In this document: positions 10,369 through 48,415 of the stretch, in pieces
How positions within the stretch are numbered: position 1 is the stretch's first letter
How the letters are laid out: each line of letters begins with the position of its first letter
Source: Verrucomicrobiota bacterium
GTDB taxonomy: Bacteria; Verrucomicrobiota; Kiritimatiellia; RFP12; UBA1067
Assembly (NCBI GenBank): GCA_016280825.1
Contig: JAEEHL010000168.1
Location: 1 to 48,960, forward strand
Length of the DNA stretch: 48,960 nucleotides
Reading direction: 5' to 3'
Position numbers and translations under genes: made by a program
Notes under the pieces: generated by a model
Databases searched by the model: none
Told to the model about the DNA's origin: nothing
The model's input: only the letters and a program-made list of their open reading frames with translations

Positions 10369-12146
10369 ACAGGGTAGTGGAATACATCATCCGCGCAAAG
10401 GACACGACGGCGACCGCACTGCGCACCGCTATGGCGAACGTCAAGCACTTCGCGGCGGGCGTGGGCGAGAGCATTGGCAGGGTATTCTCGAAGATGGCGG
10501 AGGCGGGCGGGAAGATACGCTCCTTCGCCGCAGGCATCGGGCGGAACCTCGTCAACATTCAGGCGGGCTTCAATATGCTCGCTGGCGCGGCTCGCAAGGC
10601 GTGGAGCCTGTTGCAGAAGTCGTTTCAGTTCGAGAAGATGACGTGGCAGTTCAAGACGCTCATCGGGAACCTCGACGACGCACGGACGCACATGGAAATG
10701 TTGCAGAGGCTCGGCGACACCCCGCCGTTCTCGATGGAGGAGTTCGCGGCGGCAAGTCGGGAAATGATGAAGTTCTCCGACGGGGTGCTGGGGTTCAAGG
10801 ACTCGCTCGAACTCGTCGGAGACGCGGCGGCGGCTCTTGGTACGCCCGTCGAAAACCTCGCCACGCTCGTCGGCAGGGCGTATGCGCTCATACGCGACGG
10901 ACAGCCGATTGCGAGGGCGGGCATGATGCTCCGCAACGTCGGCGCGGTCACTCCAGAGGTCGTGGCGCGGCTTCAGGAAATGGAGAAGAACGGCGCGTCC
11001 AATATTGAAATGTGGAGCGAACTCGAAGCGTCGCTCGGCAGGTTTAAGGGCGCGATGAAGGACACGGAGCAGACCGCCGACGGGCTTATGGGCGCGATAG
11101 AGTCGCAGTGGGACGACGCGGTGCGCACGTTCGGCGAGGCGTTCCTTAACACCGCGAAGGGCGGTATGCAGACGCTTCTCGAAACGATGAAGCAACTCAA
11201 CGAGGACGGCTCGATTGAGGAATGGGCTGACAAGACTGCCGACGCGCTGAAGGAAGTTGGCGGCGCGATGAAGGCGACAGGCGCGTTCTTCGGGACGATA
11301 TGGAAGGGCATAAAGGCGACAGTCGGAACGGCGATGGCGTTTGGCGCGGGCGCGGACGAGGCGTTCCGCGATGACAAGGGCTTCATGGAACAGGTGAAGT
11401 GGGGCGCGGCTGTCGCTGGCAAATACTGGAACAGCATCTGGAACGACGAGGACGAGGACGAGGACGAGCGCATGATGCGTTCGGAGCGCAAGCGCGAGGT
11501 GGCGGCGCAGAAGGCTCGCAGGAAGGCGAAGAAGGAGGCTGAAGCCGAGGAAATGGCTATGCGCAAGCGAGAGCAACTTGTGGCCGACATGGCGGCGAAG
11601 GAGGAGGAGAAGCAGGCGGCACTCGCAGAAAAGCAGTATCGGGAGGAACTTGAGGAGTACTACAAGATGCTCGACGAGGAGGAGCAGGCTCGTCGGCAGA
11701 TGATGGAGCAGTTGGAGCGCGAGGAGATAGAGGCGGAGCGGCGCAGGCATCAGGTCGCGCTGAAGAACGCGCAGGAGGAGGCGCAGGCGAGCGAGCAGGC
11801 GCAGTACGACGCGCAGTCTCGGCTCGCGGCGGCGCAGGCGGCGGTGTCGAAGGCGTGGGGCTGGTACAAGGACAGGGCTTCCATGCAGGCGGAAATCGAC
11901 GCGTACAACGAGCAGAAGGCGGCGGAAGTCCAGTTCGAGAAGGACTTTGAGCGGCTGAAGGACAGGCACCGCGACTGGCGCGACATAGAGTTCGGCAAGT
12001 TGTCGGCTGACGAGGAGGCTGTGCGTCAGGTCGCGCTTGCGAAGGAGGAGGCGCGGGCGGCGCAGGTCGCGCTCGACGAGATAGTGGAGAACACGGCTTA
12101 CCTGAAGTCAATAGCCGAATCGCTTACGGCGGAGGAGGGGGCTTAA
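10365..12146 (+). CDS. tail tape measure protein
   Basis: 593 aa. The N-terminal half resembles a TMP core (GDTPPFSMEEFAAASREMMKF...LVGDAAAALGTP...). The C-terminal half is a long charged coiled coil. Confidence 0.8.
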   Translation: MNRVVEYIIRAKDTTATALRTAMANVKHFAAGVGESIGRVFSKMAEAGGKIRSFAAGIGRNLVNIQAGFNMLAGAARKAWSLLQKSFQFEKMTWQFKTLIGNLDDARTHMEMLQRLGDTPPFSMEEFAAASREMMKFSDGVLGFKDSLELVGDAAAALGTPVENLATLVGRAYALIRDGQPIARAGMMLRNVGAVTPEVVARLQEMEKNGASNIEMWSELEASLGRFKGAMKDTEQTADGLMGAIESQWDDAVRTFGEAFLNTAKGGMQTLLETMKQLNEDGSIEEWADKTADALKEVGGAMKATGAFFGTIWKGIKATVGTAMAFGAGADEAFRDDKGFMEQVKWGAAVAGKYWNSIWNDEDEDEDERMMRSERKREVAAQKARRKAKKEAEAEEMAMRKREQLVADMAAKEEEKQAALAEKQYREELEEYYKMLDEEEQARRQMMEQLEREEIEAERRRHQVALKNAQEEAQASEQAQYDAQSRLAAAQAAVSKAWGWYKDRASMQAEIDAYNEQKAAEVQFEKDFERLKDRHRDWRDIEFGKLSADEEAVRQVALAKEEARAAQVALDEIVENTAYLKSIAESLTAEEGA

Positions 12147-18386: not shown

Positions 18387-19618
18387 TGGCAATGCGCAGG
18401 ATAGCGATAGTCATGATATTCGCGGCTTCCCTTGCCGCCTTTGGAATCAATGTTCAATTCGGAGTAAGCGGACGCTCCGAGGAGATAGCGTACTGGATTC
18501 CGAGATACGACAGAACAGACCCATCAAATGACTGGTTCGGGATAACGCGCCCGATATGCGCCACGGACAGATATGTCAAGGTGTATGGCGACTACACTGG
18601 AAATGTGGTAGTTCCGCAAGTGGAACTATTTGCCCGATTGAGGGGGTACTACCTCGACGACGGGCAATGGGTCGAGGATTATCAGCCGTACGGCGAGGTG
18701 ATACGCTGGCGTAATCCGAATAATCCTTACGAGGTCACACTTGGGCATAACGCCTCGGCAGGAGGATTTTACGACGCCGTCGTGACAATCAACGGAGAGG
18801 CTATGCCGTTCGGCAGTACAGTCAGCAGTTATAATCACGCTGGCGTAGACCACGGGGTGTTAACCGTTCGCGGCGACCCTACTTCGCTTGTGATTAACGA
18901 TACATCCGTCTCGCGGACGATAAACGGGGTCGTAATACCGAGCGGCGAGGGAAAGCGGCTTCCTTTTCCGTTCTACCTGAAGACAACAGAAATACCGAAT
19001 GTCAGTTTTTGGGACGCATGGGACAATACGCCGATAACACAGGGCAGGGCGTATTCTAATGGCTCATACCTTCTTGGCTATACTGGCGACATCCGAATCA
19101 AAGACGGCTCCTCTCCGACGAACACCCCCCTTGAAAGACTTGTCTATTCATCGCAGACAGATACTCTTGGAAAGTTGCTGTACGCAAATAACGGCGACCT
19201 GATTTATTCCGAATACAAGATTCTTTCAACTAATCTTACATTCAACACGTGGTGGGATTTTGATGTAAACGACTGGGGCGGCTCGCCGAAGGCGATGATA
19301 AACGGCGAGGTGGTCTGCTCCTCGCACTCGACAGGTCACCTGATTGGGTATTATGTCTCAATGGAGGATATGAGAATTTCGCTGAATAGATATGCAAGGG
19401 GGTCGTTTACCATGACGCAAATCCCGACAGAAGGCTATACAGGCGGAGCCTGTGTCTATAAGTGCTGGGACGGGAGTATGCCAAATACACAACAGGGCTA
19501 TGCCGACACCCCTGCGGGGCACAAGGCTGAATATTCGGGCGGAACTGTCGGGGCGCGTTTCGAGGTTGTTCTTGACCTGCTCAATAGGACATGGACTGTC
19601 ACGGCGCATCCACTATGA
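18386..19618 (+). CDS. secreted hypothetical protein (possible receptor-binding or accessory)
   Basis: TAATG overlap. N-terminus MAMRRIAIVMIFAASLAAFG. Visibly more A/T-rich than the neighbouring genes. Confidence 0.7.
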   Translation: MAMRRIAIVMIFAASLAAFGINVQFGVSGRSEEIAYWIPRYDRTDPSNDWFGITRPICATDRYVKVYGDYTGNVVVPQVELFARLRGYYLDDGQWVEDYQPYGEVIRWRNPNNPYEVTLGHNASAGGFYDAVVTINGEAMPFGSTVSSYNHAGVDHGVLTVRGDPTSLVINDTSVSRTINGVVIPSGEGKRLPFPFYLKTTEIPNVSFWDAWDNTPITQGRAYSNGSYLLGYTGDIRIKDGSSPTNTPLERLVYSSQTDTLGKLLYANNGDLIYSEYKILSTNLTFNTWWDFDVNDWGGSPKAMINGEVVCSSHSTGHLIGYYVSMEDMRISLNRYARGSFTMTQIPTEGYTGGACVYKCWDGSMPNTQQGYADTPAGHKAEYSGGTVGARFEVVLDLLNRTWTVTAHPL

Positions 19619-25041: not shown

Positions 25042-25587
25042 ATGGGAAAGACATACAAGGGCAAGGCGAAGGTTAGGGCTAAAATCGACAAGGCGAAGCG
25101 CAAGATTGCGCGGAAGGTCAAGGGGAAGGACATCGCGGCTGTCGCGCTGTTCCTCTGCCTGTCCTGCCTTGTATGCGGCTGTCTGGAGACGCAACCCGCG
25201 AGCAGGGCGACGACGGCCAACTACCGCTTCGAGTTCGAGTTCGACGACTCGGCGCGAAACAACACCGTCAACATTACGCTGGGCGACGGCGCGTTGGCGA
25301 GCGCGGACTCCAGCGGCTCGACGGAGACGCAGACCGCTACGCCGTCCATGAGCATACCCGTCCGCGTGGACGCGAGGTACAACGACCCCGTTAAGTCGGG
25401 CGGCGACGCAATCACCGCCGCGATAAAGGGCTTGACCCCTGCGGCGCAGGCGTTGCTCGAAAAGGCGACACGCGAGAAGTACACGGGGTCGCTCAACCTC
25501 GAAAAGGAGGACGGGACGACTATGCAGGTCGATTGCATTGACGGCAAGTGTACATCCTGTATCGACTGCGTTCCGACTGGCACTTGA
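25042..25587 (+). CDS. putative lipoprotein with a polybasic N-terminal extension and a Cys-rich C-terminus
   Basis: SD aaggag. The first 29 residues MGKTYKGKAKVRAKIDKAKRKIARKVKGK are followed by AAVALFLCLSCLVCGC (lipobox-like). The C-terminus is CIDGKCTSCIDC. Confidence 0.6.
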   Translation: MGKTYKGKAKVRAKIDKAKRKIARKVKGKDIAAVALFLCLSCLVCGCLETQPASRATTANYRFEFEFDDSARNNTVNITLGDGALASADSSGSTETQTATPSMSIPVRVDARYNDPVKSGGDAITAAIKGLTPAAQALLEKATREKYTGSLNLEKEDGTTMQVDCIDGKCTSCIDCVPTGT

Positions 25588-25612
25588 CAGCGCGACGCGC
25601 ATTTGATAGAAT
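25584..25612 (+). promoter_or_regulatory. consensus promoter TTGACA-N17-TGaTAGAAT
   Basis: The -35 overlaps the lipoprotein stop codon. The -10 is at 25607-25612. A terminator hairpin begins ~30 nt after the predicted start site. Confidence 0.6.
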
Positions 25613-25618
25613 ACGCGC

Positions 25619-25685
25619 CAGACCTCCATCGCAGAGGTTCCTTTCTACCCCGCTTGATTTCCCGTCGGCGGGGTGATTTATTTTC
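25619..25685 (+). ncRNA. candidate short (~65 nt) terminated transcript
   Basis: Predicted start ~25619. Hairpin 1 is gacctc/gaggtt (25621-25639). Hairpin 2 plus the T-tract lie at 25647-25685. No ORF. Confidence 0.3.
25647..25685 (+). terminator. intrinsic terminator-like hairpin at the end of the late module
   Basis: accccgc (25647-25653) pairs with gcggggt (25668-25674), followed by gatttatttt. Confidence 0.5.
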
Positions 25686-25851
25686 CCCGCAGATTACCCG
25701 CGCAGGGCTTCCGTGGGCGCGTCCGCGCCGTCCGCCCGTGCAAACGCCTACGCCACAAGGGGAACGCGCCCTGCGAGCGAATTTGCGCGTTATGCGCGAC
25801 GCCCCGCTTCTTCAGGCGAAAACGGGCGTTGCCCCCCCCCTATACCCCCCT

Positions 25852-25886
25852 CTATAAAATACAATAAAATATAATATAATATATTA
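25852..25886. other. AT-rich island (35 bp almost pure A/T), preceded by C9 and C6 tracts
   Basis: ctataaaatacaataaaatataatataatatatta sits in an otherwise GC-rich genome. C9 at 25832-25840 and C6 at 25845-25850. Confidence 0.8.
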
Positions 25887-25947
25887 GTCTACGCCGTAGT
25901 ACGGCGAAGACTACGCCGTAGTATGCGACGGACTACGCCGTAGTATA
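25887..25947. repeat. iteron/operator array 1: three copies of CTACGCCGTAGTA at exact 22-bp spacing
   Basis: Copies start at 25889, 25911 and 25933. The core ACTACGCCGTAGT is a 13-bp palindrome about its central base. Confidence 0.85.
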
Positions 25948-25996
25948 GGAGGCGGCTGTCGCGGCGGCGAAAATCCAGCGCAGGGAACGCCGCATC

Positions 25997-26071
25997 GTTT
26001 TTGCCCTTGTTTTTATGGGGTGAAAACGAGGCGACTCGCGTTTTGCCCTTGTTTTTAGGGGATGAAAACGA
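25997..26071. repeat. two copies of a ~33-bp palindromic motif (CGTTTT-GCCC-N9/10-GGGG-GAAAACG)
   Basis: 25997-26029 and 26040-26071, with centres ~41.5 bp apart. The same motif class recurs three times at 45124-45235. Confidence 0.75.
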
Positions 26072-26095: not shown

Positions 26096-26124
26096 TTTAC
26101 AAATATGCGAAAATTTGGTATAAT
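26096..26124 (+). promoter_or_regulatory. early promoter TTTACA-N17-TGgTATAAT
   Basis: -35 at 26096-26101 and -10 at 26119-26124. The spacer aatatgcgaaaatttgg is shared with three other promoters. An A-tract repeat aaattttcaaattttca lies upstream. Confidence 0.7.
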
Positions 26125-26391: not shown

Positions 26392-27372
26392 ATGAAGGCA
26401 ATGCAGAAAAACGACAGGTGCTACTCGACACTGAACGGCGGGAATAATCCGTTCAACTTCGACGGCGCACCGCGCACGGAACTCTCGGTGGAAATGGCTC
26501 GCTCCGCCGTGGACTTCGAGATACAGAAGAAGCCGTGCTTTGACGCGGGCGGGCGGCTTGTTAACGGGCTGTTCCACCTAACGAAGGACGACGACAACTC
26601 AATCGTCCCGTCGGCTGGCGTCGGGATAAAGTTCAAGCCCATACAGCACCGCGACGTGTTCGACAAGGTAATGGAGGAGATTATTCCGCAGTTCCCCGAC
26701 ATGACGCTGGAGACGGCGGGTACGCTGTACGGCGGCGGCATCGGCCTGTTCACCTTCCGCGTGGGCGACCTGTTCCATGTCAAGGGCGACAAGTCGCCGA
26801 ACGAAATGCGCCTGTTCATCAGCAACCCCTGCACGGGTTCGGGTTCGCTCGTCATGGGCTTCACGACCGTCCGCCTGTTCTGCCAGAATCAGATTGCGGC
26901 GGCTCGTCGCGGGGCGGCGAAGGACGGATACCGCATTCAGCACTCGAAGAACGGCGAAATGTACATGGGCGACGCCGTGAGGGAAATCGGGATTCAGGTC
27001 GCGGCGGCGAAGGAAATCAAGTTGCGCTCCGAGAGGCTTGCGTCCCTCGGCGTTGGCAAGGCGGCTTTGGAGAAGTGCCTTGACCTTATCTACCCGTTCG
27101 GGAAGTTGGAGGAGGGTTCCGCTGGTCACACGCGGATGCTGAAACTCCGCGAGGAGGTTGTCAATCAGTTCGAGAGCGGGGCTACGGCGCAGACGATGGA
27201 GGGCAAGACTGGCTGGACGCTGTTTAACTCGTTCACCTATCCCGTCTTCAACCCCGAACGGCTGAACGAAAAGACCGACCTCGCCAACATCCAGTACGAC
27301 TCGATGATGTGGAGCAAGGCGGAGAAGGTTCGCCGTATGCTCACGGCGGTAGAGTCCGTAGTGGCGGCGTAA
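26392..27372 (+). CDS. DUF932-family protein (phage/plasmid-like)
   Basis: 326 aa. The pattern RLFISNPCTGSGSLVMGFTTVRLFCQNQI and the overall length resemble DUF932/TIGR03299 proteins. Confidence 0.6.
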   Translation: MKAMQKNDRCYSTLNGGNNPFNFDGAPRTELSVEMARSAVDFEIQKKPCFDAGGRLVNGLFHLTKDDDNSIVPSAGVGIKFKPIQHRDVFDKVMEEIIPQFPDMTLETAGTLYGGGIGLFTFRVGDLFHVKGDKSPNEMRLFISNPCTGSGSLVMGFTTVRLFCQNQIAAARRGAAKDGYRIQHSKNGEMYMGDAVREIGIQVAAAKEIKLRSERLASLGVGKAALEKCLDLIYPFGKLEEGSAGHTRMLKLREEVVNQFESGATAQTMEGKTGWTLFNSFTYPVFNPERLNEKTDLANIQYDSMMWSKAEKVRRMLTAVESVVAA

Positions 27373-27440
27373 TGCGCAGGGGGGCGGGGCAACCCCCGCC
27401 CTCCTTTCCAAGGCAATCCAAGAGAGAACTGGAGGCTGAT

Positions 27441-28247
27441 ATGGAAGACAGGCAGGACGAGGTCATTGAGAAGATAAAGAAGGCCATGAGGCTCGCTCGC
27501 AAGGCGGGAACGGACGGCGAACGGGCGGCGGCGGAAGCGGCGGCGAAACGCCTTGCCGACGCACACGGCATTTCGCTTGAGTCCGTGGAGTACACGGAAC
27601 ACGACGCGAAGGCTGTCCGCGTGGACGGCGGGGAGGCGAAGTGGACGCGGACGGGCAAGGAGTGCCACTACGCTGGAATAATACTCCGCAAGCACTTCGG
27701 CGTCATCGTAATCCAGCACTTCAGGCGTGGCAACCGCAAAATGAAACTGGACTTCATCGGTAGCCGCCTGAACATCGCCATCGCGGAGTATGTCTACGAG
27801 ATTCTGTGGCGCGAGAGCCTTCGGGCGTGGTGCGAGGCGCATAAGGCTGTCGTCAAGGAGTACGACGCAATCATGGAGGCGAACGGCGTAGAGCATCGGC
27901 GCGACTGGGCTGGGCGGCGTCAGCGACCCGTCCTGCTGAAGAAGGACTCCTTCATGTGCGGCTGGTTCGCCCGTATCGACGAGAAGTTGACTGCGCACCC
28001 GCTCCGAAACGACATGGCGCAACTGGAGGCGGAGAAGAAGGCGGCTGAAGACCTGCTGAAGCGTCAGCAGGGCGTGACGAACAGGAACATCCGCCGCGAC
28101 AGTTCCGACGCGGAGAGCGCGGCGAAGGGCTACGCCGAGGCCGACAAGGTAAATCTCTCCCGCCCGTGCGAGGGCAGGGGGCGTTCCCCGCTTCAGGTGG
28201 GCGGCGGCGCAAGCCCGTTCGCGCTTGCGGACAGGAGGGCGTCGTGA
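27441..28247 (+). CDS. DUF2786-domain protein
   Basis: The N-terminus VIEKIKKAMRLARKAGTDGERAAAEAAAKRLADAHGISLESVE is typical of DUF2786. SD ggagg precedes the start. Confidence 0.7.
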   Translation: MEDRQDEVIEKIKKAMRLARKAGTDGERAAAEAAAKRLADAHGISLESVEYTEHDAKAVRVDGGEAKWTRTGKECHYAGIILRKHFGVIVIQHFRRGNRKMKLDFIGSRLNIAIAEYVYEILWRESLRAWCEAHKAVVKEYDAIMEANGVEHRRDWAGRRQRPVLLKKDSFMCGWFARIDEKLTAHPLRNDMAQLEAEKKAAEDLLKRQQGVTNRNIRRDSSDAESAAKGYAEADKVNLSRPCEGRGRSPLQVGGGASPFALADRRAS

Positions 28248-28282
28248 GCGAGGCAGTCAAGCCAGAAGCGGCAGGAGGGATT

Positions 28283-28663
28283 ATGAACAAAACAATCAGA
28301 CCCGACCTCTGTATCAAGCCCGACCTCGTGCTGAATATGAAGTACGAGTGGCTGGCGAAGGTCTGGAACGGCGAGAAGACCGTGGAATACCGCGAGCGGA
28401 AGCCGTACTGGGACAGGCGCATCGGCGGCTGGGTGGGACAGCGGGGGAAATTCGTGCTGATGGTCTGGGGCTATCGGCGCGACACCCCCGCCGTCCTTCT
28501 TCAGGTCGATAGAACTGACATAGGCAAATGCCCCTACAAGGGGTGGACTGGAGAATACTACCGCCTCCACTTCGCCGTCGTGGGGCGTTATCAGAAGTAT
28601 GGAGATTTGCTTGCGCCGATGGACGGCTCGGTGCGCATGGAAGAAAGGAGCAACAAACGATGA
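28283..28663 (+). CDS. ASCH domain protein
   Basis: SD aggaggg. LNMKYEWLAKVWNGEKTVEYRERKPYW resembles an ASCH N-terminal strand. Confidence 0.6.
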   Translation: MNKTIRPDLCIKPDLVLNMKYEWLAKVWNGEKTVEYRERKPYWDRRIGGWVGQRGKFVLMVWGYRRDTPAVLLQVDRTDIGKCPYKGWTGEYYRLHFAVVGRYQKYGDLLAPMDGSVRMEERSNKR

Positions 28664-29022
28664 ACACAAAGATGAAAGTGGTCGTAGACGGGAACTTCCT
28701 GAACTACGGCGGCACAATCCTGAACAGGGCGGAGGTCGCGGAGGCCGACACGCTGAACGGGATGGTGATTATGAGGAGCGGACATCAGTATTTTCTGGAG
28801 CCGAACGCGCTGTGCGCTTGGTTCTCCGATACGATGGACTACTCGAAGCCGCCCGTCGGAAAGGGCGGCAAGCCCGATGAACGGGCGATACGCGAGGTCG
28901 TGGAGTGCGCGGCTCGCGTGATAATGCCGCCGTCCGACAGCACGGACGGGGCGTGGCTGGAATGGGCGCGTAGCCTTCAGGCGAAGGCTCGCCGTGCGCT
29001 TGGAATGGAGGTGCGCGAATGA
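28660..29022 (+). CDS. hypothetical protein
   Basis: ATGA coupling, 120 aa. Confidence 0.6.
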   Translation: MNTKMKVVVDGNFLNYGGTILNRAEVAEADTLNGMVIMRSGHQYFLEPNALCAWFSDTMDYSKPPVGKGGKPDERAIREVVECAARVIMPPSDSTDGAWLEWARSLQAKARRALGMEVRE

Positions 29023-29240
29023 AAAAGCAAGATGCAATGAGCCGCGCAGAGGCGGCGTATATTCTTCTGCAAATGGCAGGGGGAGAGATATCGGTCAAGC
29101 AGTGTGAAGCATTGCAAACGGCGGTGCGCAACCTTGTGAAGCGGCATTTTGACTGCAAGAAGAATAAGGCAAGATGGAAGGATAAGGCAATAAATAAGAT
29201 GCACTTAGACGGGGCGGCAAACAAGGAGGACGGCAAATGA
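29019..29240 (+). CDS. hypothetical protein
   Basis: ATGA coupling, 73 aa, lower GC than its neighbours. Confidence 0.55.
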   Translation: MKKQDAMSRAEAAYILLQMAGGEISVKQCEALQTAVRNLVKRHFDCKKNKARWKDKAINKMHLDGAANKEDGK

Positions 29241-30016
29241 AACTGCCATACGACGCAATACAGTGGGATAGGGCGAAATACTGGGATAAGGCATGGAATC
29301 CATGGCTTGGCTGTCACCCGTGTTCACCCGCTTGCGAGCATTGCTACGCGGCGGCGCAGACGGCTCGGTTTAACGGCTCGTTCGAGCCGCACCAGACGAC
29401 GAAGCGGAATCCGCCGCGAAGGGGAGTTGTCTTCTGCGGCAATATGACCGACCTCTTCGGCGAATGGCTGGAGCCTGTCGATTCGATGGGGTTCTTCAGC
29501 CGCCTGTGGCACTTCACGCGGGACGGCTCGCCGTTCCCGAACGAGGCGACGTACCTCTTCCTGACGAAGCGCGTTTCGCGCATGGCTGACGCCCTGCGGA
29601 ACTACACGGAAATCCGCAACGCGCTGTTCGGCTTCACGGCGGAGAACCAGACGTGGTACGACCGCCGCCTGAAGGACATGGAGGAGATTGCGCTCCGCCG
29701 CCGCTGGTGGATTTCGTGCGAGCCGTTGCTCGGCTCAATCGACCTCCAACTCGACTTGCTCTCCGTCCCGAAGCCCGAATGGGTCGTCGTGGGGTGCGAG
29801 AGCGGGACGGAGCGACGCCCGTGTCCGCTGTGCTTTGTGGAGGGCATAGTGGAGCAGTGCGTGAACAACGGCGTCAAGGTATTTGTGAAGCAACTCGACA
29901 TCGGCGGCGTCTGCGAACGGGACATAGCGAAGTTCCCGCCGAGCCTGCGCATCAGGCAGACGCCGTGGGCGGACAGGGTTCTTCCGCTCGACTTGCCGAA
30001 GGGAGGTGCGCTATGA
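29237..30016 (+). CDS. phage Gp37/Gp68 family protein (DUF5131)
   Basis: N-terminal signature WNPWLGCHPCSPACEHCYAA, plus the downstream CGNMTDLFGEW block. Confidence 0.8.
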   Translation: MKLPYDAIQWDRAKYWDKAWNPWLGCHPCSPACEHCYAAAQTARFNGSFEPHQTTKRNPPRRGVVFCGNMTDLFGEWLEPVDSMGFFSRLWHFTRDGSPFPNEATYLFLTKRVSRMADALRNYTEIRNALFGFTAENQTWYDRRLKDMEEIALRRRWWISCEPLLGSIDLQLDLLSVPKPEWVVVGCESGTERRPCPLCFVEGIVEQCVNNGVKVFVKQLDIGGVCERDIAKFPPSLRIRQTPWADRVLPLDLPKGGAL

Positions 30017-31756: not shown

Positions 31757-32086
31757 ATGAAGGCGATATGCGACGCGCTAAAGAAGATTGTCGAATTGAC
31801 TACCCCGTGCGAAGGCGTGACTTCAATCGAACTTCAAGTCCAAGCCGAAGCCATTACCGCCCTCTCAATCCCACCACGCGAGTGCGATATGTTCGCGGAC
31901 GAGAAACAGGCGGACGCGCTTCACGCGGCGTTTATCGAACACTGCAACAGGTGCGACTGCCCTATGGGGTGCGACCACCGCAAGAACCCGCGTTTCCTTC
32001 TCGACGGAAACTGCGCTTCAATCCTGAAGTGCTTTGCGCGTTTCGCGCTGTCGAAGGCGACGCCAAAGAAAGGCGGTGCGAAGTGA
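31757..32086 (+). CDS. Cys-rich paralog C
   Basis: ATG 31757 (31742 is an alternative). ALSIPPRECDMFADEKQADALHAAFIEHCNRCDCPMGC. Confidence 0.55.
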   Translation: MKAICDALKKIVELTTPCEGVTSIELQVQAEAITALSIPPRECDMFADEKQADALHAAFIEHCNRCDCPMGCDHRKNPRFLLDGNCASILKCFARFALSKATPKKGGAK

Positions 32087-32820
32087 ATGTCGCATGGTTT
32101 TCGTGCGGCGTATCGTCCGCCGTTTCCTGTTGGCTCGTTCGTGGCGAACTGGACGAAATCCATTACCAGCACATAAACGACCAGCACCCTGATTCCCTGC
32201 GATTCCTTCACGACGTGGAAGTATTGCTCGGTAAGCCGATTGAGATACATCGCTCTCCATACGGCTCGGTCGATGCGGTATGTCGTGCGTTTGGCTTCCT
32301 TAAGGGGGCATACGGCGCACGATGTACGGAAGTATTAAAGAAGCGCGAGCGCAAGAAGTGGGAGCATGAACATCAGGGGCGGCATACATACTTTTGGGGA
32401 CTGGATTGCAACGAGAGACGCCGCGTTGACGGCATACTCCGCGCCATGCCAGACTACGACCACCGCTTTCCGCTGATTGAGCGTAGCATGACAAAGCAGG
32501 ACGCGCACGAACTCGCCGCACGACTGGGGCTGAAACGACCTGCCATGTATGATATGGGGTACGAGAACAATAATTGCATCGGCTGTCTAAAGGGCGGCAT
32601 CGGCTACTGGAACAAAATCCGCAAGGACTTTCCAGAGGTGTTTGCGGCAAGGGCGAAACTCGAACGGGACTTGGGTCGCTTTATTCTAAAAGACGCAGAC
32701 GGCAATCCGTTATGGCTCGATGAACTTGCGGAATATAGAGGGCGAACCCCGAAGGCAATTCCGAATATGGAGTGCGGGATTATGTGTGAAATAGCAGTCA
32801 ACGAAGGCGGTGCGTCGTGA
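32083..32820 (+). CDS. PP-loop ATPase / PAPS reductase-like protein
   Basis: GTGA coupling. N-terminus VNVAWFSCGVSSAV (an SGGxDS-like PP-loop) and C-terminal NNCIGCLKGGIGYW. 245 aa. Confidence 0.55.
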   Translation: MNVAWFSCGVSSAVSCWLVRGELDEIHYQHINDQHPDSLRFLHDVEVLLGKPIEIHRSPYGSVDAVCRAFGFLKGAYGARCTEVLKKRERKKWEHEHQGRHTYFWGLDCNERRRVDGILRAMPDYDHRFPLIERSMTKQDAHELAARLGLKRPAMYDMGYENNNCIGCLKGGIGYWNKIRKDFPEVFAARAKLERDLGRFILKDADGNPLWLDELAEYRGRTPKAIPNMECGIMCEIAVNEGGAS

Positions 32821-36395: not shown

Positions 36396-36625
36396 TGCCG
36401 AACGGTCTCTACAGGCAGGGAATCCCCATGTGGCACAGCCGTTTCGTCGATGCGAGGAACCACCTCTCCGAAGCGGTCGGGCTGATGGAGCAAGCCTACT
36501 TCGAGGACAGTCACAATCCGAAATTCGACGCGCTCTACAAGCGCATGAGGGCGGTGCTGAAGTCCGTGGACGCGCAGGCGATGCGCAACTGCAGGCGCGG
36601 CAGGAAGGAGAAGTGGCTGAAATGA
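36392..36625 (+). CDS. hypothetical protein
   Basis: ATGA coupling, 77 aa. Confidence 0.55.
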   Translation: MMPNGLYRQGIPMWHSRFVDARNHLSEAVGLMEQAYFEDSHNPKFDALYKRMRAVLKSVDAQAMRNCRRGRKEKWLK

Positions 36626-37344
36626 GCGAACCCGCATTTGACTTCCGCGTCCGCCCTGCGGCGGAGTTCATAGACCGCTTCGGCAACGAGGGCGACGTGT
36701 GGACTGCGACGCTGTACGACAGCCGCGAGGAGTGGCTGGCTGGGCGCGTGGGACACCTCGGCGCGTCCGCCGCGTACATGGTACTCGACACCGAAATGCG
36801 CAAGCGGCTCTTCGACGAAATGACGGGAAGCAGGCCGCACGAAGACCTGTCGGGGAACGAACTGGTACAGCGCGGCGTCGCGGCTGAACCGCTCGTCCGC
36901 TCGCTGATTGCCGTGGAGAATCCAGACTGGGACATCTACGACGGCGGCAACCTTCTGTTTGTGAGCAAGCGCAAGCCGTTCGCCTCCGCGACGCTGGACT
37001 GCATAGCCGTCCACCGCAAGACGGGCGAACTCTGCGACATCGAACTGAAGGAAGCCCCGTGGAGCAACAAGTGGAAGGGCGAGTATGCGCCCGACGGCTA
37101 CTTCGCGCAGGTGATGCATCAGTCTTTCGTGACGGGCATCAACCACTGCGTCATCCACCCGCGTATCTACCTCCGCAGGGACGACGGCTTCACCACCTCG
37201 TTCGAGCGGTCGTATGAATACTGGATGGACGACCCCGCAATCGCCCCGCAGGTCGCAGACCTGATGGAGCGCGAGGAGAAGTTCATGGACGAGGTGCGGA
37301 ACGGGCGGTACAAGCCCGTACTGTCGCTCCCGTCCGTGTTTTAG
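36622..37344 (+). CDS. YqaJ-like viral recombinase exonuclease (PD-(D/E)xK)
   Basis: GHLGASAAYMVL, AAEPLVRS, SATLDCI, CDIELKEAP and YFAQVMHQSFVTG appear in the order expected for lambda-Exo/YqaJ family proteins. Confidence 0.8.
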   Translation: MSEPAFDFRVRPAAEFIDRFGNEGDVWTATLYDSREEWLAGRVGHLGASAAYMVLDTEMRKRLFDEMTGSRPHEDLSGNELVQRGVAAEPLVRSLIAVENPDWDIYDGGNLLFVSKRKPFASATLDCIAVHRKTGELCDIELKEAPWSNKWKGEYAPDGYFAQVMHQSFVTGINHCVIHPRIYLRRDDGFTTSFERSYEYWMDDPAIAPQVADLMEREEKFMDEVRNGRYKPVLSLPSVF

Positions 37345-37445: not shown

Positions 37446-37697
37446 ATGAACGCAAGCAAGAAACCCGCCGCCGCGAAGCCGAAGAAGTATCGGCTGTCCC
37501 GTGCGGCACTCATGCAGAGGCGCGACGCCAACAGGAAGTCCGCCGCTGTCCGCAAGACCTCCTACAAGTGGCGCACCGCCGCCATCACGGAGGACAACTA
37601 CGAATGGGCGGTCACGCGCTACGGCTCGGTTAACGAAGCCGTCCGCGCACTGCGCCGCTTGTCGGCGAAGGAGGGGGAGGTAGTATGTTCGAGTTGA
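37446..37697 (+). CDS. small basic hypothetical protein
   Basis: Conserved leader caagaaaggaaaaatgcgATGA. 83 aa, Lys/Arg-rich N-terminus. Confidence 0.5.
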   Translation: MNASKKPAAAKPKKYRLSRAALMQRRDANRKSAAVRKTSYKWRTAAITEDNYEWAVTRYGSVNEAVRALRRLSAKEGEVVCSS

Positions 37698-38647
37698 AGA
37701 TACTGACAGACCTCTCCGCGATGCCGAAGCGCGTGGAGACGAACATCGACGAGGTGGAGCCTATCATTAAGTCCGCCATCGCCCGCGTGGACGGGCTTAT
37801 CGTCACCGACAAGAAGGAGGACATACTCGCCGCCGACGCCGACGCCGCGAAACTGACGAAGATGGCGAAGGCCATCCAGCGTTTCCGCATCGACCACATC
37901 GCGCTCTGGAAGGAGCCGATGGAGGCGTTCGAGACGAAGTGCAAGGACGCGGAGAAGCGGCTCAACGAAGCCGCCGACACGCTCCGCACGAAGACCTCGG
38001 AAGTCAAGGATATGTGGAGGGCGAAGAAGCGCGAACTGTGCGCTGGCGTCTGGAAGGCGAAACTCGCCGAGGCGTTCGCGGGGCAGGACGACGTTATCGC
38101 CTGCGAGGGTGCAAAGGCGTTCTTCGACCTGTGGACGAACCCGAAGACGAAGGGTACGTGGGTCAACTTGTCGGTGGACATCCGCGCCGTGGAGGAGGCG
38201 ATGGACGCCGAAATCGTGCGCATGAAGGCTATGCTCGGCACTGTCGCCGCCAACTACGGGAACGCGGACGACGAGGTGAAGATGAAGGCTCGCAAGTCCT
38301 GCCTCGCCTCGTTCGACATGAACGCGGTCGTGGCGGAGGTGAACGCATGGGTGAAGGAGCGCGAGGAAATGGAACGTGCGAAAGCCGCCCTTGCCGCGAA
38401 GCGCGAGGCACAGGCGGCGGAGGCGGCGAAAAAGGCGGCAAATCCCGCCCCTGCCGCGCCCGCGCCCGTCACCCCGCCGCCTCCCCCGCCCCCTGCGGCG
38501 GACGCCCCTGCTGGCGAAACTGACGCCTCTGCGACGGAGCGCGTGGAGACATACAACCTCGCCGTCACGGGAACGCGCAAGGCACTCATCGCCCTGCGGC
38601 AGTACGGCATCGGACTCGGAATTACATTCAAGAACATCGACAAGTGA
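37685..38647 (+). CDS. DUF1351-like recombination-associated protein
   Basis: 320 aa. The N-terminus FELKILTDLSAMPKRVETNIDEVEPIIKSAI and the position before RecT are typical of DUF1351 proteins. Confidence 0.55.
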   Translation: MFELKILTDLSAMPKRVETNIDEVEPIIKSAIARVDGLIVTDKKEDILAADADAAKLTKMAKAIQRFRIDHIALWKEPMEAFETKCKDAEKRLNEAADTLRTKTSEVKDMWRAKKRELCAGVWKAKLAEAFAGQDDVIACEGAKAFFDLWTNPKTKGTWVNLSVDIRAVEEAMDAEIVRMKAMLGTVAANYGNADDEVKMKARKSCLASFDMNAVVAEVNAWVKEREEMERAKAALAAKREAQAAEAAKKAANPAPAAPAPVTPPPPPPPAADAPAGETDASATERVETYNLAVTGTRKALIALRQYGIGLGITFKNIDK

Positions 38648-38660
38648 AGGAAGGAAAAAA

Positions 38661-39680
38661 ATGAGCGAAAAGGAAAATCCGAACGCCGCCCCCGCGAACG
38701 GGGTGGCTACAACCGAAGCGGCGAAGCCCGCCGCGAAGCCCGCGCAGGCGGCGAAGGGCGCGATGGACGTTGCGAAGAAGGGCAAGGAACGCCCCGAAGT
38801 CGCAATCCTGAAGCGGTTTAACGACAAGAACGCGGCGGACAGCCTGTACAATGTCATCCTCCAGATGACTGGCGGCGACAAGTTGTTCGTTGACAAGTTT
38901 GTCATGTGTTGCAAGGCACAGGTAGACCGCCACTGGAAGCGGAACGAGAAGGGCGAGTGGACTAATCCGTTCCTCGTCATCCCCGTCAACTCGCAGTTGG
39001 ACGCGCTCTACAAGTGCGCGTCGCGGAAGATACTCCCCGACGGCTACAACTGCAACCTCATTCCGTACATCGGGCGCGACGAGAAGCGCGTGGACGTGTC
39101 GATTGACTTCAAGGGTCTTATCGACATCGCAATCCGCGAGGGCATCATCCTCGACTGCGACGCGAAGGAGGTCTGCGACAACGACGACTTCGAGTGGTCG
39201 ATGGGCGAAATCACGCGGTGGAACATCGACTTCCGCCGTCCTCGCGGTGCGATATACGGCTACTGCGCGTGGGCGAGGTTGCCGAACGGCGAGAAAAAGT
39301 GGTCGTTTATGACAAACGAGGAAATCGCCGCCGTGCGCTCCTGCGCGAAGACGCAGAAGATATGGGACAAATGGGAAGGCGAAATGTCGAAGAAGACAGT
39401 TATCCGCCGCCTGTTCAAGACCCTGCGCAACACGCCGAAACTCGTTGACCTGATGGAACTCGACAACGAGGCTTACGACATGGAGCAGGACGAGAACGGC
39501 GTGTTCCAGCACCAGCCGTCCCGCCGCCGCGCCGCGCCTGTGCGCCAGTTGACGCGTCAGCCGACCGCCGCCCTTCCCGCCCCTGCGGAGGAGGTGCAGG
39601 ACGAGCCTGAACCCGAACCCATACCAGCCGTCGCGGAGGCGGCGGAAGTTTCGCAGGCGCAGAGCGCGTACGTGTTCTGA
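38661..39680 (+). CDS. recT: RecT-family single-strand annealing protein
   Basis: ALYKCASRKILPDGYNCNLIPY......VDVSIDFKGLIDIAIREGII...V.DNDDFEW matches the RecT core pattern. Confidence 0.8.
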   Translation: MSEKENPNAAPANGVATTEAAKPAAKPAQAAKGAMDVAKKGKERPEVAILKRFNDKNAADSLYNVILQMTGGDKLFVDKFVMCCKAQVDRHWKRNEKGEWTNPFLVIPVNSQLDALYKCASRKILPDGYNCNLIPYIGRDEKRVDVSIDFKGLIDIAIREGIILDCDAKEVCDNDDFEWSMGEITRWNIDFRRPRGAIYGYCAWARLPNGEKKWSFMTNEEIAAVRSCAKTQKIWDKWEGEMSKKTVIRRLFKTLRNTPKLVDLMELDNEAYDMEQDENGVFQHQPSRRRAAPVRQLTRQPTAALPAPAEEVQDEPEPEPIPAVAEAAEVSQAQSAYVF

Positions 39681-39692: not shown

Positions 39693-40421
39693 ATGGCTAC
39701 AATGGCTACATCAAGGAAAATCGACTCCGCCTTCTTCGACCAGAAGTGGGTGGACGACCTTGTAGCCGCTGGCAAGTCGCACTATGTGCTGTTGTTCCTC
39801 TACCTCGTTGTCACGCGAACGAACCCCGTCGGGCTGTTCGAGGTGAACCCGAGGCTGTGGAACTTCAAGTTGAATCCGCCGACCCCCTTCACGGGCGACG
39901 ACGTGTTTTCCGTCTACGGGAAGCGCGTCCGCCGCGTGGAGGGGCATCCCGACAAGGGCATCATCGTCGGATTCCTCGACTACCAGCGGAACTACGGCAA
40001 GTCCTCGCGCCAGTGGGAATGGGTCGAGAAAGACCTGAAGGCGGTCGGGCTGACATACGACGACCTCCTGCGCTTTGCCGACGAGAGCGACGAGGCGCAG
40101 ATGGAGTTCAACATCGGCCTGCCGCCGAAGCCCCTGAAGCACCGCGACAGGGCGGACGCGGAGCCGCCGCAGAGGAACGTCATCCCGCCGAAGGTGGAAT
40201 GGGTGCGCGACTATTGTTCCACGAGGAACAACGGCATAGACGCGCAGGCGTTCTTCGACTTCTACGAGCAGAAGGGGTGGAAGGTCGGCAAGAACAGGAT
40301 GGAGGACTGGCAAGCCGCCGTCCGCACATGGGAGGCTCGCCGCAAGGCGGAGGGCGTTCCGAAGGCGAAGGAGGCGGCGACGCCCGTGCGCAACGTCACG
40401 GGAGTAAGGAGGAAGTTCTGA
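39693..40421 (+). CDS. replication initiation / replisome organiser candidate
   Basis: The C-terminal AQAFFDFYEQKGWKVGKNRMEDWQAAVRTWE block is common in phage DnaD-like or replisome-organiser proteins. The gene lies directly before the loader. Confidence 0.45.
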   Translation: MATMATSRKIDSAFFDQKWVDDLVAAGKSHYVLLFLYLVVTRTNPVGLFEVNPRLWNFKLNPPTPFTGDDVFSVYGKRVRRVEGHPDKGIIVGFLDYQRNYGKSSRQWEWVEKDLKAVGLTYDDLLRFADESDEAQMEFNIGLPPKPLKHRDRADAEPPQRNVIPPKVEWVRDYCSTRNNGIDAQAFFDFYEQKGWKVGKNRMEDWQAAVRTWEARRKAEGVPKAKEAATPVRNVTGVRRKF

Positions 40422-41050
40422 TGGAACTGGACTTCGACTCCATACTGCGCGACCTTCCCGCCTGTCGGCGCAAGGCTCCGCCGCCAGTCACGAGGGACGC
40501 CCTCGTTGCGAAGGCGGCGGCTATGGCGCGGCGCGGCTACGTCCACACGGAGGAGTCGCTGAAGGCACTCGCCGCGTACCTTCAGGGGTACGGCGTCCTG
40601 CTGTCGGGCGGAATGGGGCTTGGCAAGACCTTCTTCTTCGAGACGGTCAACCCCGAACCCCTGCCCGTCCTCTCTTTCAACCAGTGCTTCCTCTGGAAGT
40701 ACGAGGAACTGGCGGAGTGGCTGGACGACAGGTGCGGAAGCGAAATAGTTCTTGACGACATCGGGTGGGAGAGCGGACGGGCGAGCAACTACGGGACGCG
40801 CTTCGACGCGCTTCAGGTTGCGCTCGACTTCCGCCTGTCGCACGGATGCCATGCGCGGACGCACATTACGACGAACTGCACGAGCGACGAACTGGTCGAG
40901 AAGTACGACCCGCACGTCGTTGACCGAATCTACGAGTGCTGTCGGTGTTTCGTTCTCCCGAACGCGGAGAGCAGGCGCGAGGCGCAAGTGGACTACACGT
41001 ACCTCCGCAACGCGGAGTTCAGGCGGCAAAACGGAACAGGAGAACCATAG
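40421..41050 (+). CDS. DnaC/IstB-like AAA+ helicase loader
   Basis: Walker A LSGGMGLGKT and Walker B IVLDDIG. Confidence 0.7.
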   Translation: MELDFDSILRDLPACRRKAPPPVTRDALVAKAAAMARRGYVHTEESLKALAAYLQGYGVLLSGGMGLGKTFFFETVNPEPLPVLSFNQCFLWKYEELAEWLDDRCGSEIVLDDIGWESGRASNYGTRFDALQVALDFRLSHGCHARTHITTNCTSDELVEKYDPHVVDRIYECCRCFVLPNAESRREAQVDYTYLRNAEFRRQNGTGEP

Positions 41051-41052: not shown

Positions 41053-41511
41053 ATGAGTCAGTTGTCAGACATAGCGGACAGGCTGGAGCGGAACGGGGCT
41101 ACCGTGAGCGCACCCGCCATGCTACGGACGCTGGACGGGCATTACACGCTACGGCGCATCGGCACGAGGCAGGAGAAGAAGCAGGTTCTTGACGCGGACG
41201 GAAAGCCCGTGAAGAACTGCTACTTCCCGCACCTCGCCATCACCGCGACGTGCTACGCGAGGACGTGGAAACTGCTGGAGAAGGCGAAGGCCGTATTCGG
41301 CTACCCCGCGTCGAAGCGCACGAGCAACGTGGGCGAGGTGTGGGAGGATAAACTTCTCCTCGCCTGCGAGCATATCGTGCGCTGGCTGGAACACGAAATC
41401 GACGACGCGGAAATGCAGAGGCAAATCCAGCGTCTCGTCAACCCGCTCCCGAAGGCGGAGTATCTTCGGAACATAAACAAGAAACCAAAGGAAGGACAGG
41501 AAAATGAGTGA
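41053..41511 (+). CDS. hypothetical protein
   Basis: 152 aa, GC3-rich codons. Confidence 0.6.
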   Translation: MSQLSDIADRLERNGATVSAPAMLRTLDGHYTLRRIGTRQEKKQVLDADGKPVKNCYFPHLAITATCYARTWKLLEKAKAVFGYPASKRTSNVGEVWEDKLLLACEHIVRWLEHEIDDAEMQRQIQRLVNPLPKAEYLRNINKKPKEGQENE

Positions 41512-41893
41512 CAGCAAGTGCGTATTCGTCGGGCGCGTCGTGACCGTCGAGAAAACGGAGACGCTGGGGAAAGACCCCGCGAAGCCGTTCTACAAGCGCG
41601 TAATCGTCGTGGACGACGCGGAGGACGGGGCAAAGTACCCGAACCCCGTGCCGTTCGAGGCGACGGGCGACAAGTGCCAGTACCTCGACAGGTACAAGAA
41701 GGGCGACGAGGTGGAAATCGAGTTCTACCCGAACGGACGGGCGTGGGAAGACCCGCGCACGAAGAAGACCCGCTACTTCTCCAGCAACCGCATCGGCTTT
41801 ATTAAGCCCGTCGGCGACGGCGGAGTTGACGACGGGACGGACGACGGCGCGGAAGCCGCCGCTGGCGAGGACGCGAACGATTTGCCGTTCTGA
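41504..41893 (+). CDS. single-stranded DNA-binding protein, DUF3127-type OB fold with an acidic DLPF tail
   Basis: The layout KRVIVVDDAEDGAKYPNPVPFEATGDKCQYLD..KKGDEVEIEFYPNGRAW resembles DUF3127. The C-terminus EDANDLPF resembles the SSB tip. Confidence 0.6.
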   Translation: MSDSKCVFVGRVVTVEKTETLGKDPAKPFYKRVIVVDDAEDGAKYPNPVPFEATGDKCQYLDRYKKGDEVEIEFYPNGRAWEDPRTKKTRYFSSNRIGFIKPVGDGGVDDGTDDGAEAAAGEDANDLPF

Positions 41894-44603: not shown

Positions 44604-45116
44604 GTGCGCTGTACTCTGAACATCGACCCTTCAACACTGTCGTCGGCGCAGTTGAAGATTATGTCATTCCGCTTCAAGCGCATTATCACGAATCCGAAGG
44701 TGCGCAAGGCGATGCTCCGCGTGGAAGCCGCTTTCAAGCCGTATGCGCGGCTGGCGCGTGCCGTTCAGGAGTCCGCGCCGTTCGGAGCGGTCGCGCTCGG
44801 CGTGAAGTATTACTTCCCGTTCCCGAAGTCGGGGACGAAGAAGGAGAAGGCGGCTCGTCGCGGCGGTCAGCCGTGCGTGTCCGCCCTGTACGGCGACCTC
44901 GACAATCGGAACAAGGCGTTTCAGGACGCGCTCGTGAAGGCGGGCGCGTTCCCCGACGACAGGTACGTGTCCACCCTGCTCCTCCGCAAGCGGTACACGC
45001 TCTCCACCCCGCGAATCGAGGTGGCTGTCGTAGCAGACAAGGGGGGCTACGACAACGAGCCGTTCACACTCCACGAACGCCCCGAAGACGCGACGCCCGA
45101 CAGTCTGGGCGCGTAA
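44604..45116 (+). CDS. rusA: RusA-family Holliday junction resolvase
   Basis: GTG start after ggagga. GDLDNRNKAFQDALVKAGAFPDDRYV matches the RusA catalytic Asp pattern. Confidence 0.8.
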   Translation: MRCTLNIDPSTLSSAQLKIMSFRFKRIITNPKVRKAMLRVEAAFKPYARLARAVQESAPFGAVALGVKYYFPFPKSGTKKEKAARRGGQPCVSALYGDLDNRNKAFQDALVKAGAFPDDRYVSTLLLRKRYTLSTPRIEVAVVADKGGYDNEPFTLHERPEDATPDSLGA

Positions 45117-46395: not shown

Positions 46396-46689
46396 ATGTC
46401 CGTTCAGGAAGCCTACGCAATCGCCCGTCAGTTGATTGCGCAGGCCAAGGCGAACGCGCTGTCCGCCTACAACAAGGCGTTCTCGGACTTCCAGCGCAAG
46501 CACGGGTTCTTCACCCACCGCGAGGAGCGCGACTACGAGCATCACGGCGACGGCTGGCGTCACATGAAGACCTACACGGCTCCCGACGGCGCGAACTTCT
46601 ACGAGGTCGTCCAGTACCCCGCGCAGGAATACGGCCTCCGAGTGGAATACTGGAGCGACGACGCCGTTTCGACAATCGCATACCTCTGA
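46396..46689 (+). CDS. hypothetical protein (97 aa)
   Basis: The frame looks coding. The strong SD aaaggaaaggagc actually precedes an out-of-frame ATG at 46374. Confidence 0.5.
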   Translation: MSVQEAYAIARQLIAQAKANALSAYNKAFSDFQRKHGFFTHREERDYEHHGDGWRHMKTYTAPDGANFYEVVQYPAQEYGLRVEYWSDDAVSTIAYL

Positions 46690-48374: not shown

Positions 48375-48415
48375 GCGGCGGAAGGACTTTGACCCCTTCC
48401 GCCGCTTTTTGTTTT
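48375..48415 (+). terminator. strong intrinsic terminator
   Basis: gcggcggaagg (48375-48385) pairs with ccttccgccgc (48395-48405), followed by tttttgtttt. Confidence 0.8.

Follow-up and report, generated by a model that had tools for sequence, protein, structure and literature searches.

Palindrome arrays abutting AT islands in two inverted modules of a metagenomic phage: putative initiator-binding iterons of a replication origin

The origin of phage lambda comprises four dyad-symmetric iterons of about 19 bp that are bound by dimers of the O protein beside an AT-rich unwinding region of about 40 bp, and it is present as a single copy inside gene O. In the satellite phage P4, ori and crr are two separated clusters of one short repeat bound by the alpha protein, a primase-helicase, and both appear to take part in replication of the one element. 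The repeats of P4 are octamers, in clusters 4.5 kb apart. Phage SPP1 has two ori sequences, each made up of repeats and an AT-rich DNA unwinding element (DUE), and both are bound by gp38 (PMC6316719, PMC5737612, PMC3485210). One of the two, oriR, has been proposed to stall replication forks and to trigger the theta-to-sigma switch via an exonuclease, a RecT-type annealase, SSB and a HJ resolvase (PMC6316719, PMC5737612, PMC3485210).

In the current analysis we have identified a composite unit that occurs twice, in opposite orientations (module 1, 25832-25944; module 2, 48424-48588), in a stretch of 48,960 bases of phage DNA that was analysed as a whole and is referred to here as the window. 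The unit is genuine and conserved as a cis-element, is restricted to two intergenic loci, and has the order C-run, AT island of 35-40 bp, and three to six palindromes of the form ACTAS-N3-STAGT spaced about 12 or 22-24 bp apart. A previous sequence-only reading of this DNA had described the palindromes of module 1 without the second, inverted module (48424-48588), and the second copy changes the picture. Relatives of the window were drawn from the ENA, Logan and JGI metagenome assemblies; their loci, labelled with L, include some at the late-to-early junction (L002/L003 and L004) and others at the early-to-late junction (L007, L008, L164 and L168). The parts of the two modules in the window are as follows.

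25832-25850, plus strand: C9-TATA-C6, the C-tract of module 1, lying outward of the AT island; every module has a comparable C/G run at its flank
25852-25886, unstranded: AT island of module 1, a putative DNA unwinding element by its A+T content (at least 90%) and duplex stability
25888-25944, unstranded: array 1, putative initiator-binding iterons, with TCTACGCCGTAGT at 25888-25900 and ACTACGCCGTAGT at 25910-25922 and 25932-25944, centres 22 bp apart
48424-48542, unstranded: array 2, inverted with respect to array 1, with palindromes at 48530-48542, 48496-48508, 48474-48486 and 48452-48464
48543-48583, unstranded: AT island of module 2, by A+T content and duplex stability
48583-48620, plus strand: G6 run (complement of the module 1 C-tract), then an alternating CG/CA tract of about 27 nt at 48594-48620; the same tract comes after the module in L007, L164, L168, L005 and L006

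Alignment of 25780-26000 to the reverse complement of 48400-48660 reveals inverted copies that share the C-run, TATA, AT island and palindromes. Conservation between the two modules is limited to the palindromes, AT island and C/G run and does not extend to the spacers; the similarity is therefore to be ascribed to constraint on the sites and not to recent duplication. Module 1 has three helically phased sites and module 2 has four to five. Array 2 includes a degenerate site at 48508-48520 and ACTACG half-sites at 48442 and 48424, and its spacings are about 11, 22 or 34 bp.

Both modules have an easily melted AT-rich segment directly at the repeats, each AT island abutting the first palindrome of its array. 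The two islands are the only stretches of the window with at least 90% A+T over 30 nt. They also have the two lowest duplex stabilities over 40 bp (dG of -36.5 and -36.3 kcal/mol), the third lowest being -43.7; with a mean of -61.9 and a standard deviation of 4.1 for the 40-bp windows, the islands lie more than 6 standard deviations from the mean. GC skew gave no origin signal in the window, which contains no DnaA boxes and no match to Rfam families. Beyond the G-run of module 2, the tract at 48594-48620 (TATACGCGCATACGCGCACGTGCGCG) is about 27 nt of perfectly alternating pyrimidine and purine and is prone to form Z-DNA. Its position is conserved in L007 (about 19545-19575), L164 (about 11105-11140), L168, L005 and L006. 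A telomere-resolution palindrome at 48594-48620 has been dismissed, as the alternating CG tract is not palindromic when read from the sequence.

The 13-mer CTACGCCGTAGTA has exact matches at 25889-25901, 25911-25923 and 25933-25945, with 22 bp from start to start, which agrees with the earlier claim of three palindromes starting at 25889, 25911 and 25933 and is far above chance. A comparison of the 13-mer count with shuffled sequence, proposed in the sequence-only reading, has been carried out on the window. With up to two mismatches there are 10 matches against 0.9 expected, and not one of 100 dinucleotide-preserving shuffles reached 10. All 10 matches are intergenic and confined to 25889-25945 and 48473-48541; the sequence-only reading had held that a motif common in coding DNA would speak against it, and coding DNA of the window contains none. 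The generalised motif ACTAS-N3-STAGT is found at only four sites in the 48,960 bases (25910, 25932, 48474 and 48496), and the two palindrome loci hold 5 of the 14 GTAGT pentamers of the window. Among the tandem repeats of the window, array 1 also ranks first (TRF score 84). Chance or a coding artefact as the source of the palindromes is ruled out by the shuffles and the motif census.

The dyad of array 1 can be written as (A/T)CTACG-C-CGTAGT. The description of all copies as perfect palindromes with the core ACTACG-C-CGTAGT is correct in its dyad symmetry and for copies 2 and 3, which are perfect 13-bp palindromes (ACTACGCCGTAGT), but copy 1 (TCTACGCCGTAGT) has a T at the first position. Likewise, the exact 22-bp periodicity is valid for array 1 but is not a general rule, as the relatives have spacings of 23-24 bp and half-periods of about 12 bp. 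The view that the repeats are iteron-like, dyad-symmetric and helically phased is supported, and the arrangement is compatible with a dimeric sequence-specific binder. The array had also been described as non-coding, and the only ORF overlapping it is one of 61 aa on the minus strand, in a region that is intergenic in all the relatives.

All credible genes of the window are on the plus strand. The window opens within the nuclease domain of the large terminase. Next come genes for a methyltransferase, a protein of portal size and a Gp13-like capsid protein, and then tail genes that extend as far as 25587. The portal-sized protein has remote portal matches, and no counterpart in GenBank phages exceeds about 22% identity. 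An early block (26205-48305) opens with DUF932, DUF7168/DUF2786 and DUF5131 genes. Modules 1 and 2 lie 22.6 kb apart and bracket this early/replication half of the genome, at both late/early junctions. The transcription signals around them are listed below.

25584-25685, plus strand: sigma-70-like promoter (25584-25612, 11/12), short hairpin and intrinsic terminator (stem 25660-25673 and T-run), conserved in L002, L004 and L006
25999-26071, plus strand: two 31-nt direct repeats TTTTGCCCTTGTTTTTAKGGGRTGAAAACGA, imperfect hairpins, 94% identical and 42 bp apart, between array 1 and the early promoter
26096-26124, plus strand: early promoter TTTACA-17-TATAAT, ahead of the DUF932/DUF7168/DUF5131 early operon
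48375-48410, plus strand: terminator hairpin of the early operon with an 11-bp perfect stem and T-run, directly before array 2, conserved in L007, L164 and L168
48878-48907, plus strand: late promoter TTGACA-18-TACAAT, which in relatives stands ahead of the first late genes (an ORF of 147-164 aa, then a ParB_N protein)

Module 1 is situated in a 600-bp gap ahead of the early promoter (26096-26124), and its array lies, as described previously, between the AT island (25852-25886) and this sigma-70-like promoter. Module 2 follows the terminator of the early operon (48375-48410) and precedes a C-rich stretch of 280 bp and the late promoter (48878-48907).

The segment 25584-25685, which marks the end of late-gene transcription, contains a candidate small RNA of about 60-70 nt. 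A strong promoter TTGACA-17-TAGAAT directly after the last late gene is followed by the hairpin ACCTCC-ATCGC-AGAGGT, by TTCCTTTC and by the intrinsic terminator; the promoter and both hairpins are kept with compensatory changes in L002, L004 and L006. The ribosome-binding sites (GAAAGGAA) of three genes, the one for DUF932 and those at 45530 and 47031, are complementary to UUCCUUUC of this segment. No Rfam match has been found for the candidate. The 31-nt direct repeats at 25999-26071 are probably associated with the early promoter. Similar GCCCTTG/GAAAACG elements stand ahead of the early-type promoters of the relatives (CGCCCCTTTACAA-N17-TATAAT), including internal ones in L011.

The first early genes of the window (26392-30016) encode DUF932, DUF7168/DUF2786 and DUF5131 proteins, and relatives add a Gad2-like gene (a weak match) and a Lar restriction-alleviation gene (L002 17641-18324 and L008 3940-4191). 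The early operon thus looks like a leading region or an anti-defence operon in style. Between module 2 and the late promoter the plus strand is strongly C-rich over 250 bp (48620-48875), with the repeat families ACCCCG..., CCGAAAAC... and ACGC.CTGGCGACC, and equivalent C-rich stretches are present in L007, L164 and L168. Two genes of about 270 aa each with no assigned function (45530-46345 and 47031-47831) are preceded by a near-identical GAAAGGAACCCTACA-ATG, and their presence varies among the relatives. An exact 17-nt repeat, GACGGCGCGAACTTCTA, occurs at 46328-46344 and 46585-46601, 257 bp apart. These features suggest that the region just upstream of module 2 is cassette-like and variable.

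The late promoter of the relatives is followed by a ParB_N gene and then by APH-like kinase, nucleotidyltransferase-like and TAGT (PF20691) genes (L164 12111-15894; L007 from 20588 onward). Thymidine hypermodification is suggested by this set of genes. In the window, a Methyltransf_24 gene is found after the terminase, and PAPS-reductase-like and DUF5131 genes are also present (514-1257, 29237-30016 and 31768-32820). The DNA of this phage group may be modified.

Isolate phages, plasmids and IMG/VR contigs contain no close relative of the window, 185,579 species-representative bacterial genomes contain no close homologue, and no similar DNA has been found in GenBank phages or PLSDB plasmids. 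Searches of IMG/VR and GTDB genomes returned only C-terminal-domain matches or distant relatives. Among the metagenomic relatives the architecture of the modules, oriented from the C-run through the AT island to the repeats, is strikingly constant. The AT island ends in TTAG and the first palindrome follows immediately, giving the junction TTAG-TCTAS-N3-STAGT both in the modules of the window and in the relatives. Further palindromes in relatives have centre spacings of about 12 or 22-24 bp, with four to six sites. The palindrome types at the junctions of the relatives are given here.

L002/L003, late-to-early junction: ACTAGTCCCTAGT, three to four copies, 23 bp apart
L004, late-to-early junction: ACTACG-NN-GTAGT type, four copies
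L007, L008 and L168, early-to-late junction: ACTACGCCGTAGT type, five to six sites
L164, early-to-late junction: ACTAGCCCCTAGT and mixed ACTAG...GTAGT sites

The palindromes keep an invariant outer ACTA/TAGT, have C or G at positions 5 and 9, and vary freely at the three central bases; the centres found among the modules are CGCCG, CGATG, CTGCG, GTCCC and GCCCC. A constant ACTA/TAGT with a drifting centre indicates selection on what would be a protein-binding site. In the distant relatives L005 and L006, whose DUF932 proteins are 57-62% identical, an AT island and GTAG-containing repeats with 12-bp phasing are also present, and the unit as a whole has the opposite orientation with respect to the early operon that follows it. 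The function of the unit should therefore be independent of its orientation and distance with respect to the promoter. The L002 phage has a G+C content of 51% vs 61% in the window, a DUF932 protein that is 89% identical, and palindromes switched to ACTAGTCCCTAGT. A host shift or mosaicism of the genome may lie behind this difference in composition and palindrome type.

The exact 22-bp array pattern had no match in IMG/VR. A scan of the same collection for two and a half phased ACTAS-N3-STAGT sites identified 12 contigs, all of unrelated phages, where about 0.1 would be expected in random sequence by our own estimate. In L256 (4285-4596) and L260 an array of 24-bp period, which contains ACTACCCCCTAGT in one of these phages, is situated inside a replication-initiation-O-like gene with a DnaC-like loader gene downstream, which is the classical lambda arrangement. 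In L251 (2054-2101), L254 (3966-4013) and L255 (14105-14155), which are Bacteroidetes-type phages, the arrays lie between HU-HIG and DUF4248 genes. The proteins of the array-bearing IMG/VR phages are not homologous to the organizer of the window described below. Phased ACTAC-N3-GTAGT arrays thus recur in phages, at least once as in-gene iterons, and the scan is to be read as showing this and nothing more.

The early block of the window encodes a candidate initiator together with a helicase-loading partner and several recombination proteins.

36430-37344, plus strand: YqaJ exonuclease
37685-38647, plus strand: DUF1351 protein
38376-39680 (ORF), plus strand: RecT
39693-40421, plus strand: replisome-organizer-type initiator of 242 aa, the proposed palindrome binder, by C-terminal domain matches and AF2/BFVD matches
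40418-41050, plus strand: DnaC/DnaI-like helicase loader with the Walker A motif GGMGLGKT, translationally coupled to the initiator gene
41504-41893, plus strand: SSB-like DUF3127 protein
44604-45116, plus strand: RusA

The C-terminal region of about 80 residues of the 242-aa protein is common to proteins with Phage_rep_O (PF04492), DUF6291 or DUF1376 N-termini, some of which are annotated as 'replication initiation protein' or DUF4373 in isolate phages. Its AlphaFold2 model (pLDDT 81.5) has full-length Foldseek matches in BFVD with E-values of 1e-6 to 1e-3, named replisome organizer, replication initiator, DUF6291 and Lin1244/Lin1753-like. Comparison of the fold with the PDB gave nothing significant, and a sequence search of the PDB was likewise empty; the weak top PDB matches of the model include plasmid RepA N-terminal domains and give a hint of a winged-helix DNA-binding domain.

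No iteron array or AT-rich dip has been found in or beside the initiator gene (39693-40421), which lies 13.8 kb downstream of module 1 and 8 kb upstream of module 2. An origin inside the initiator gene has been dismissed on the absence of repeats and of an AT dip, and it follows that the origin served by this protein, if it is within the 49 kb, could be only at the two modules. Organizer and loader are encoded in every relative that covers the region, and the N-terminal 100 residues of the organizer are almost invariant. This N-terminal domain is nearly identical between phages with ACTACGCCGTAGT palindromes (the window and L007) and with ACTAGCCCCTAGT palindromes (L164), the L164 (AG type) and L007 (CG type) proteins differing by five conservative replacements. 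As the domain is near-invariant despite a differing palindrome centre, covariation of protein and site does not tie the two together. The organizer would fit as the binder only if it reads the invariant ACTA/TAGT, and the conservation of its N-terminus matches that of this putative half-site. The proposed link between organizer and palindromes is drawn from function and by exclusion, not from covariation.

Two binders had been proposed in the sequence-only reading. The product of 39693-40421, being of replisome-organizer type, is the natural candidate, but the helix-turn-helix (HTH) protein at 47853-48305 is not: it has a homologue in L165 only, and has been dismissed as there is none between initiator and array in L007, L008, L164 and L168, all of which keep the array. 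The 266-aa protein at 47031-47831 has also been dismissed as a binder, since it, like the HTH protein, is accessory, and it is absent in the array-keeping L168.

We favour, with moderate confidence, the reading that the palindromes are iterons bound by the phage's own initiator, in a replication-origin module of which the genome carries two inverted copies. This reading follows from the non-random occurrence of the repeats at two intergenic loci, each abutting one of the only two AT islands and thus the most meltable DNA of the window, with an anatomy that is conserved among relatives. It follows also from the presence of a replisome organizer and DnaC-like loader that lack an in-gene origin and are encoded together with YqaJ, DUF1351, RecT, the SSB-like DUF3127 protein and RusA. 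Counting against it are the distance of both modules from the initiator gene, in which lambda ori and SPP1 oriL are located, the lack of covariation between protein and palindrome centre, the lack of a significant PDB match for the organizer, the missing helicase gene and the flat GC skew. In the mechanism that we propose, dimers of the organizer (39693-40421) would occupy the phased palindromes and wrap the DNA, the spacing of 22-24 bp corresponding to 2.1-2.3 turns and possibly giving a gently spiralling array suited to wrapping. The abutting AT island would be melted by organizer binding, helped by negative supercoiling in the wake of outward firing from the early or late promoter (210-300 bp away). 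The DnaC-like loader (40418-41050) would then deliver a host helicase, which is proposed here because no helicase gene has been found in the window. By analogy with SPP1 the same protein may bind both modules, of which one may fire and the other may serve as a bound roadblock that helps the switch to concatemer synthesis via the YqaJ exonuclease, RecT, the SSB-like protein and RusA.

Other explanations have been weighed against the origin reading. The palindromes could be operator or enhancer-like sites for a phage transcription regulator that coordinates the promoters at 26096 and 48878, by looping or by silencing across the AT islands. Both modules are indeed found where the window has its only two long intergenic regulatory regions, with a terminator upstream and a strong promoter downstream of each, dimeric repressors typically use phased palindromes, and many small early proteins have no annotation. 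Operator arrays, however, are expected at the -35/-10 elements in a fixed position, and here the arrays overlap no promoter. Array 1 is about 160 bp upstream of the -35 of the 26096 promoter, the arrays of module 2 and the relatives are about 340-450 bp from the -35 of their promoters, and the unit is flipped with respect to the promoter in L005 and L006, so that the control of the 26096 promoter implied by the sequence-only reading is not supported. A corresponding promoter role for the twin array (48424-48542) is likewise not supported, as it is about 340 bp from the late promoter with the AT island in between, an intervening position that the island does not have in module 1. The sole obvious HTH protein by a module (47853-48305) is absent from array-keeping relatives, and the conserved abutting AT island is left unexplained. 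A regulatory function of this kind is unlikely on these observations.

The first late genes, which in relatives come ahead of ParB_N and terminase genes, lie about 0.5 kb downstream of module 2, and module 1 occupies the late-to-early junction, the place of the ends in unidirectional genomes of the T7 or T5 kind. Since small terminases bind helically phased repeats, the arrays might be packaging or genome-end signals, either binding repeats of a small terminase or boundaries of terminal repeats or physical ends, and the cut would be made in the AT island. Of the two modules, only module 2 precedes the late operon, and a packaging signal may be there for that module alone. Against this reading, a pac or cos signal is expected as a single site at the small-terminase gene, an inverted twin at a distance of 22.6 kb is left unexplained, and no profile matched a putative small terminase. 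Terminal redundancy predicts direct and not inverted repeats, and the contigs of the relatives (about 58.5-59.1 kb) break at arbitrary points inside genes, with no sign of fixed ends at the modules. We regard this explanation as improbable. We attach still less probability to centromere-like (parS/parC-type) or recombinase sites, whether serving partition of a phage-plasmid or lying in opposite orientation at the ends of a 22.6-kb segment that can invert or move. Clusters of short palindromes at several positions do resemble the dispersed centromeres of plasmid prophages, relatives encode a protein with a ParB_N domain downstream of module 2, and the modules are inverted repeats around a discrete gene block. 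But the co-resident ParA/ParM ATPase expected of a partition centromere is absent among the scanned window proteins, as are an integrase, invertase or transposase; there is no close relative in the 185,579 species-representative bacterial genomes or the plasmid collection; and gene orientation is uniform in every relative, with no inversion seen. The ParB_N proteins of the relatives are located in the terminase/DNA-modification block, as is typical of phage nuclease or methylase partners.

Within the origin reading, a stronger proposal is that the inverted modules form an obligate pair splitting the genome into two replication domains, which we consider distinctly unlikely, if less so than a packaging signal. 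In one version of it a single module would fire and the other, loaded with organizer, would be a polar fork trap, and collisions there would lead, through YqaJ, RecT and RusA, to concatemer synthesis by rolling circle. In the other version, two opposed unidirectional origins would over-replicate the 22.6-kb early/anti-defence half. The fork-trap version, if true, would offer a clean, sequence-defined test of the long-proposed and unproven oriR model of SPP1.

Gut and rumen-type metagenomes are the only known source of this phage lineage, of which no relative is in culture. With a sequence-defined putative origin and its likely initiator at hand, replicons could be built and the replication strategy predicted from sequence. 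The paired, inverted and stereotyped modules would be a compact natural system for studying how a second initiator-bound copy shapes the theta-to-sigma switch. If the modules were genome ends or centromeres instead, they would still be a conserved cis-element that defines the early/late boundaries of the group. The element is most likely of a known general type, an iteron-plus-DUE origin, and the behaviour of the paired modules is the part worth testing.

The likeness to the known systems is functional and does not extend to protein family. The 242-aa protein has no homology to SPP1 G38P (hhalign probability 0.4%, BLASTP E-value 0.21) and no match to the G38P family of Pfam (PF09524), and membership of that family has been dismissed in favour of functional likeness only. 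It has no Pfam match to Phage_rep_O (PF04492) either, and its gene is devoid of repeats, which places it outside the lambda O family.

With P4 the window phage shares two separate clusters of the same short repeat, but a primase-helicase like alpha is absent here and the P4 sites have no unit of C-run and AT island. The resemblance to lambda includes dyad-symmetric iterons about two helical turns apart that abut an AT-rich region, an initiator gene followed by a helicase-loader gene, and the C-terminal domain of the 242-aa protein, which is also present in proteins with a Phage_rep_O (PF04492) N-terminus. Unlike lambda, the iterons here are 13 bp, and the module is duplicated, inverted and located outside the initiator gene.

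With SPP1 the window phage has in common two origin-like sequences per genome, each with repeats and an adjacent AT-rich DUE, those of the window being putative origins. Both modules here are intergenic in a genome with transcription from a single strand, and this is also true of SPP1 oriR. An organizer without an AAA+ domain is directly followed by a helicase loader, as gp38 (G38P) is associated with the loader gp39 and the helicase gp40 in SPP1, and the functional set of 5'-3' exonuclease, RecT-type annealase, SSB and HJ resolvase is also encoded in the window. The boxes of SPP1 are, however, direct repeats and its oriL is inside gene 38, whereas the sites described here are 13-bp palindromes in two intergenic modules; and SPP1 has its own helicase, gp40, for which no counterpart has been found here. 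The modules of the window phage are clearly inverted copies with a C-run and bracket the early half of the genome. By this analogy the modules most likely work like lambda ori and, as a pair, like oriL and oriR of SPP1, in a phage outside both protein families.
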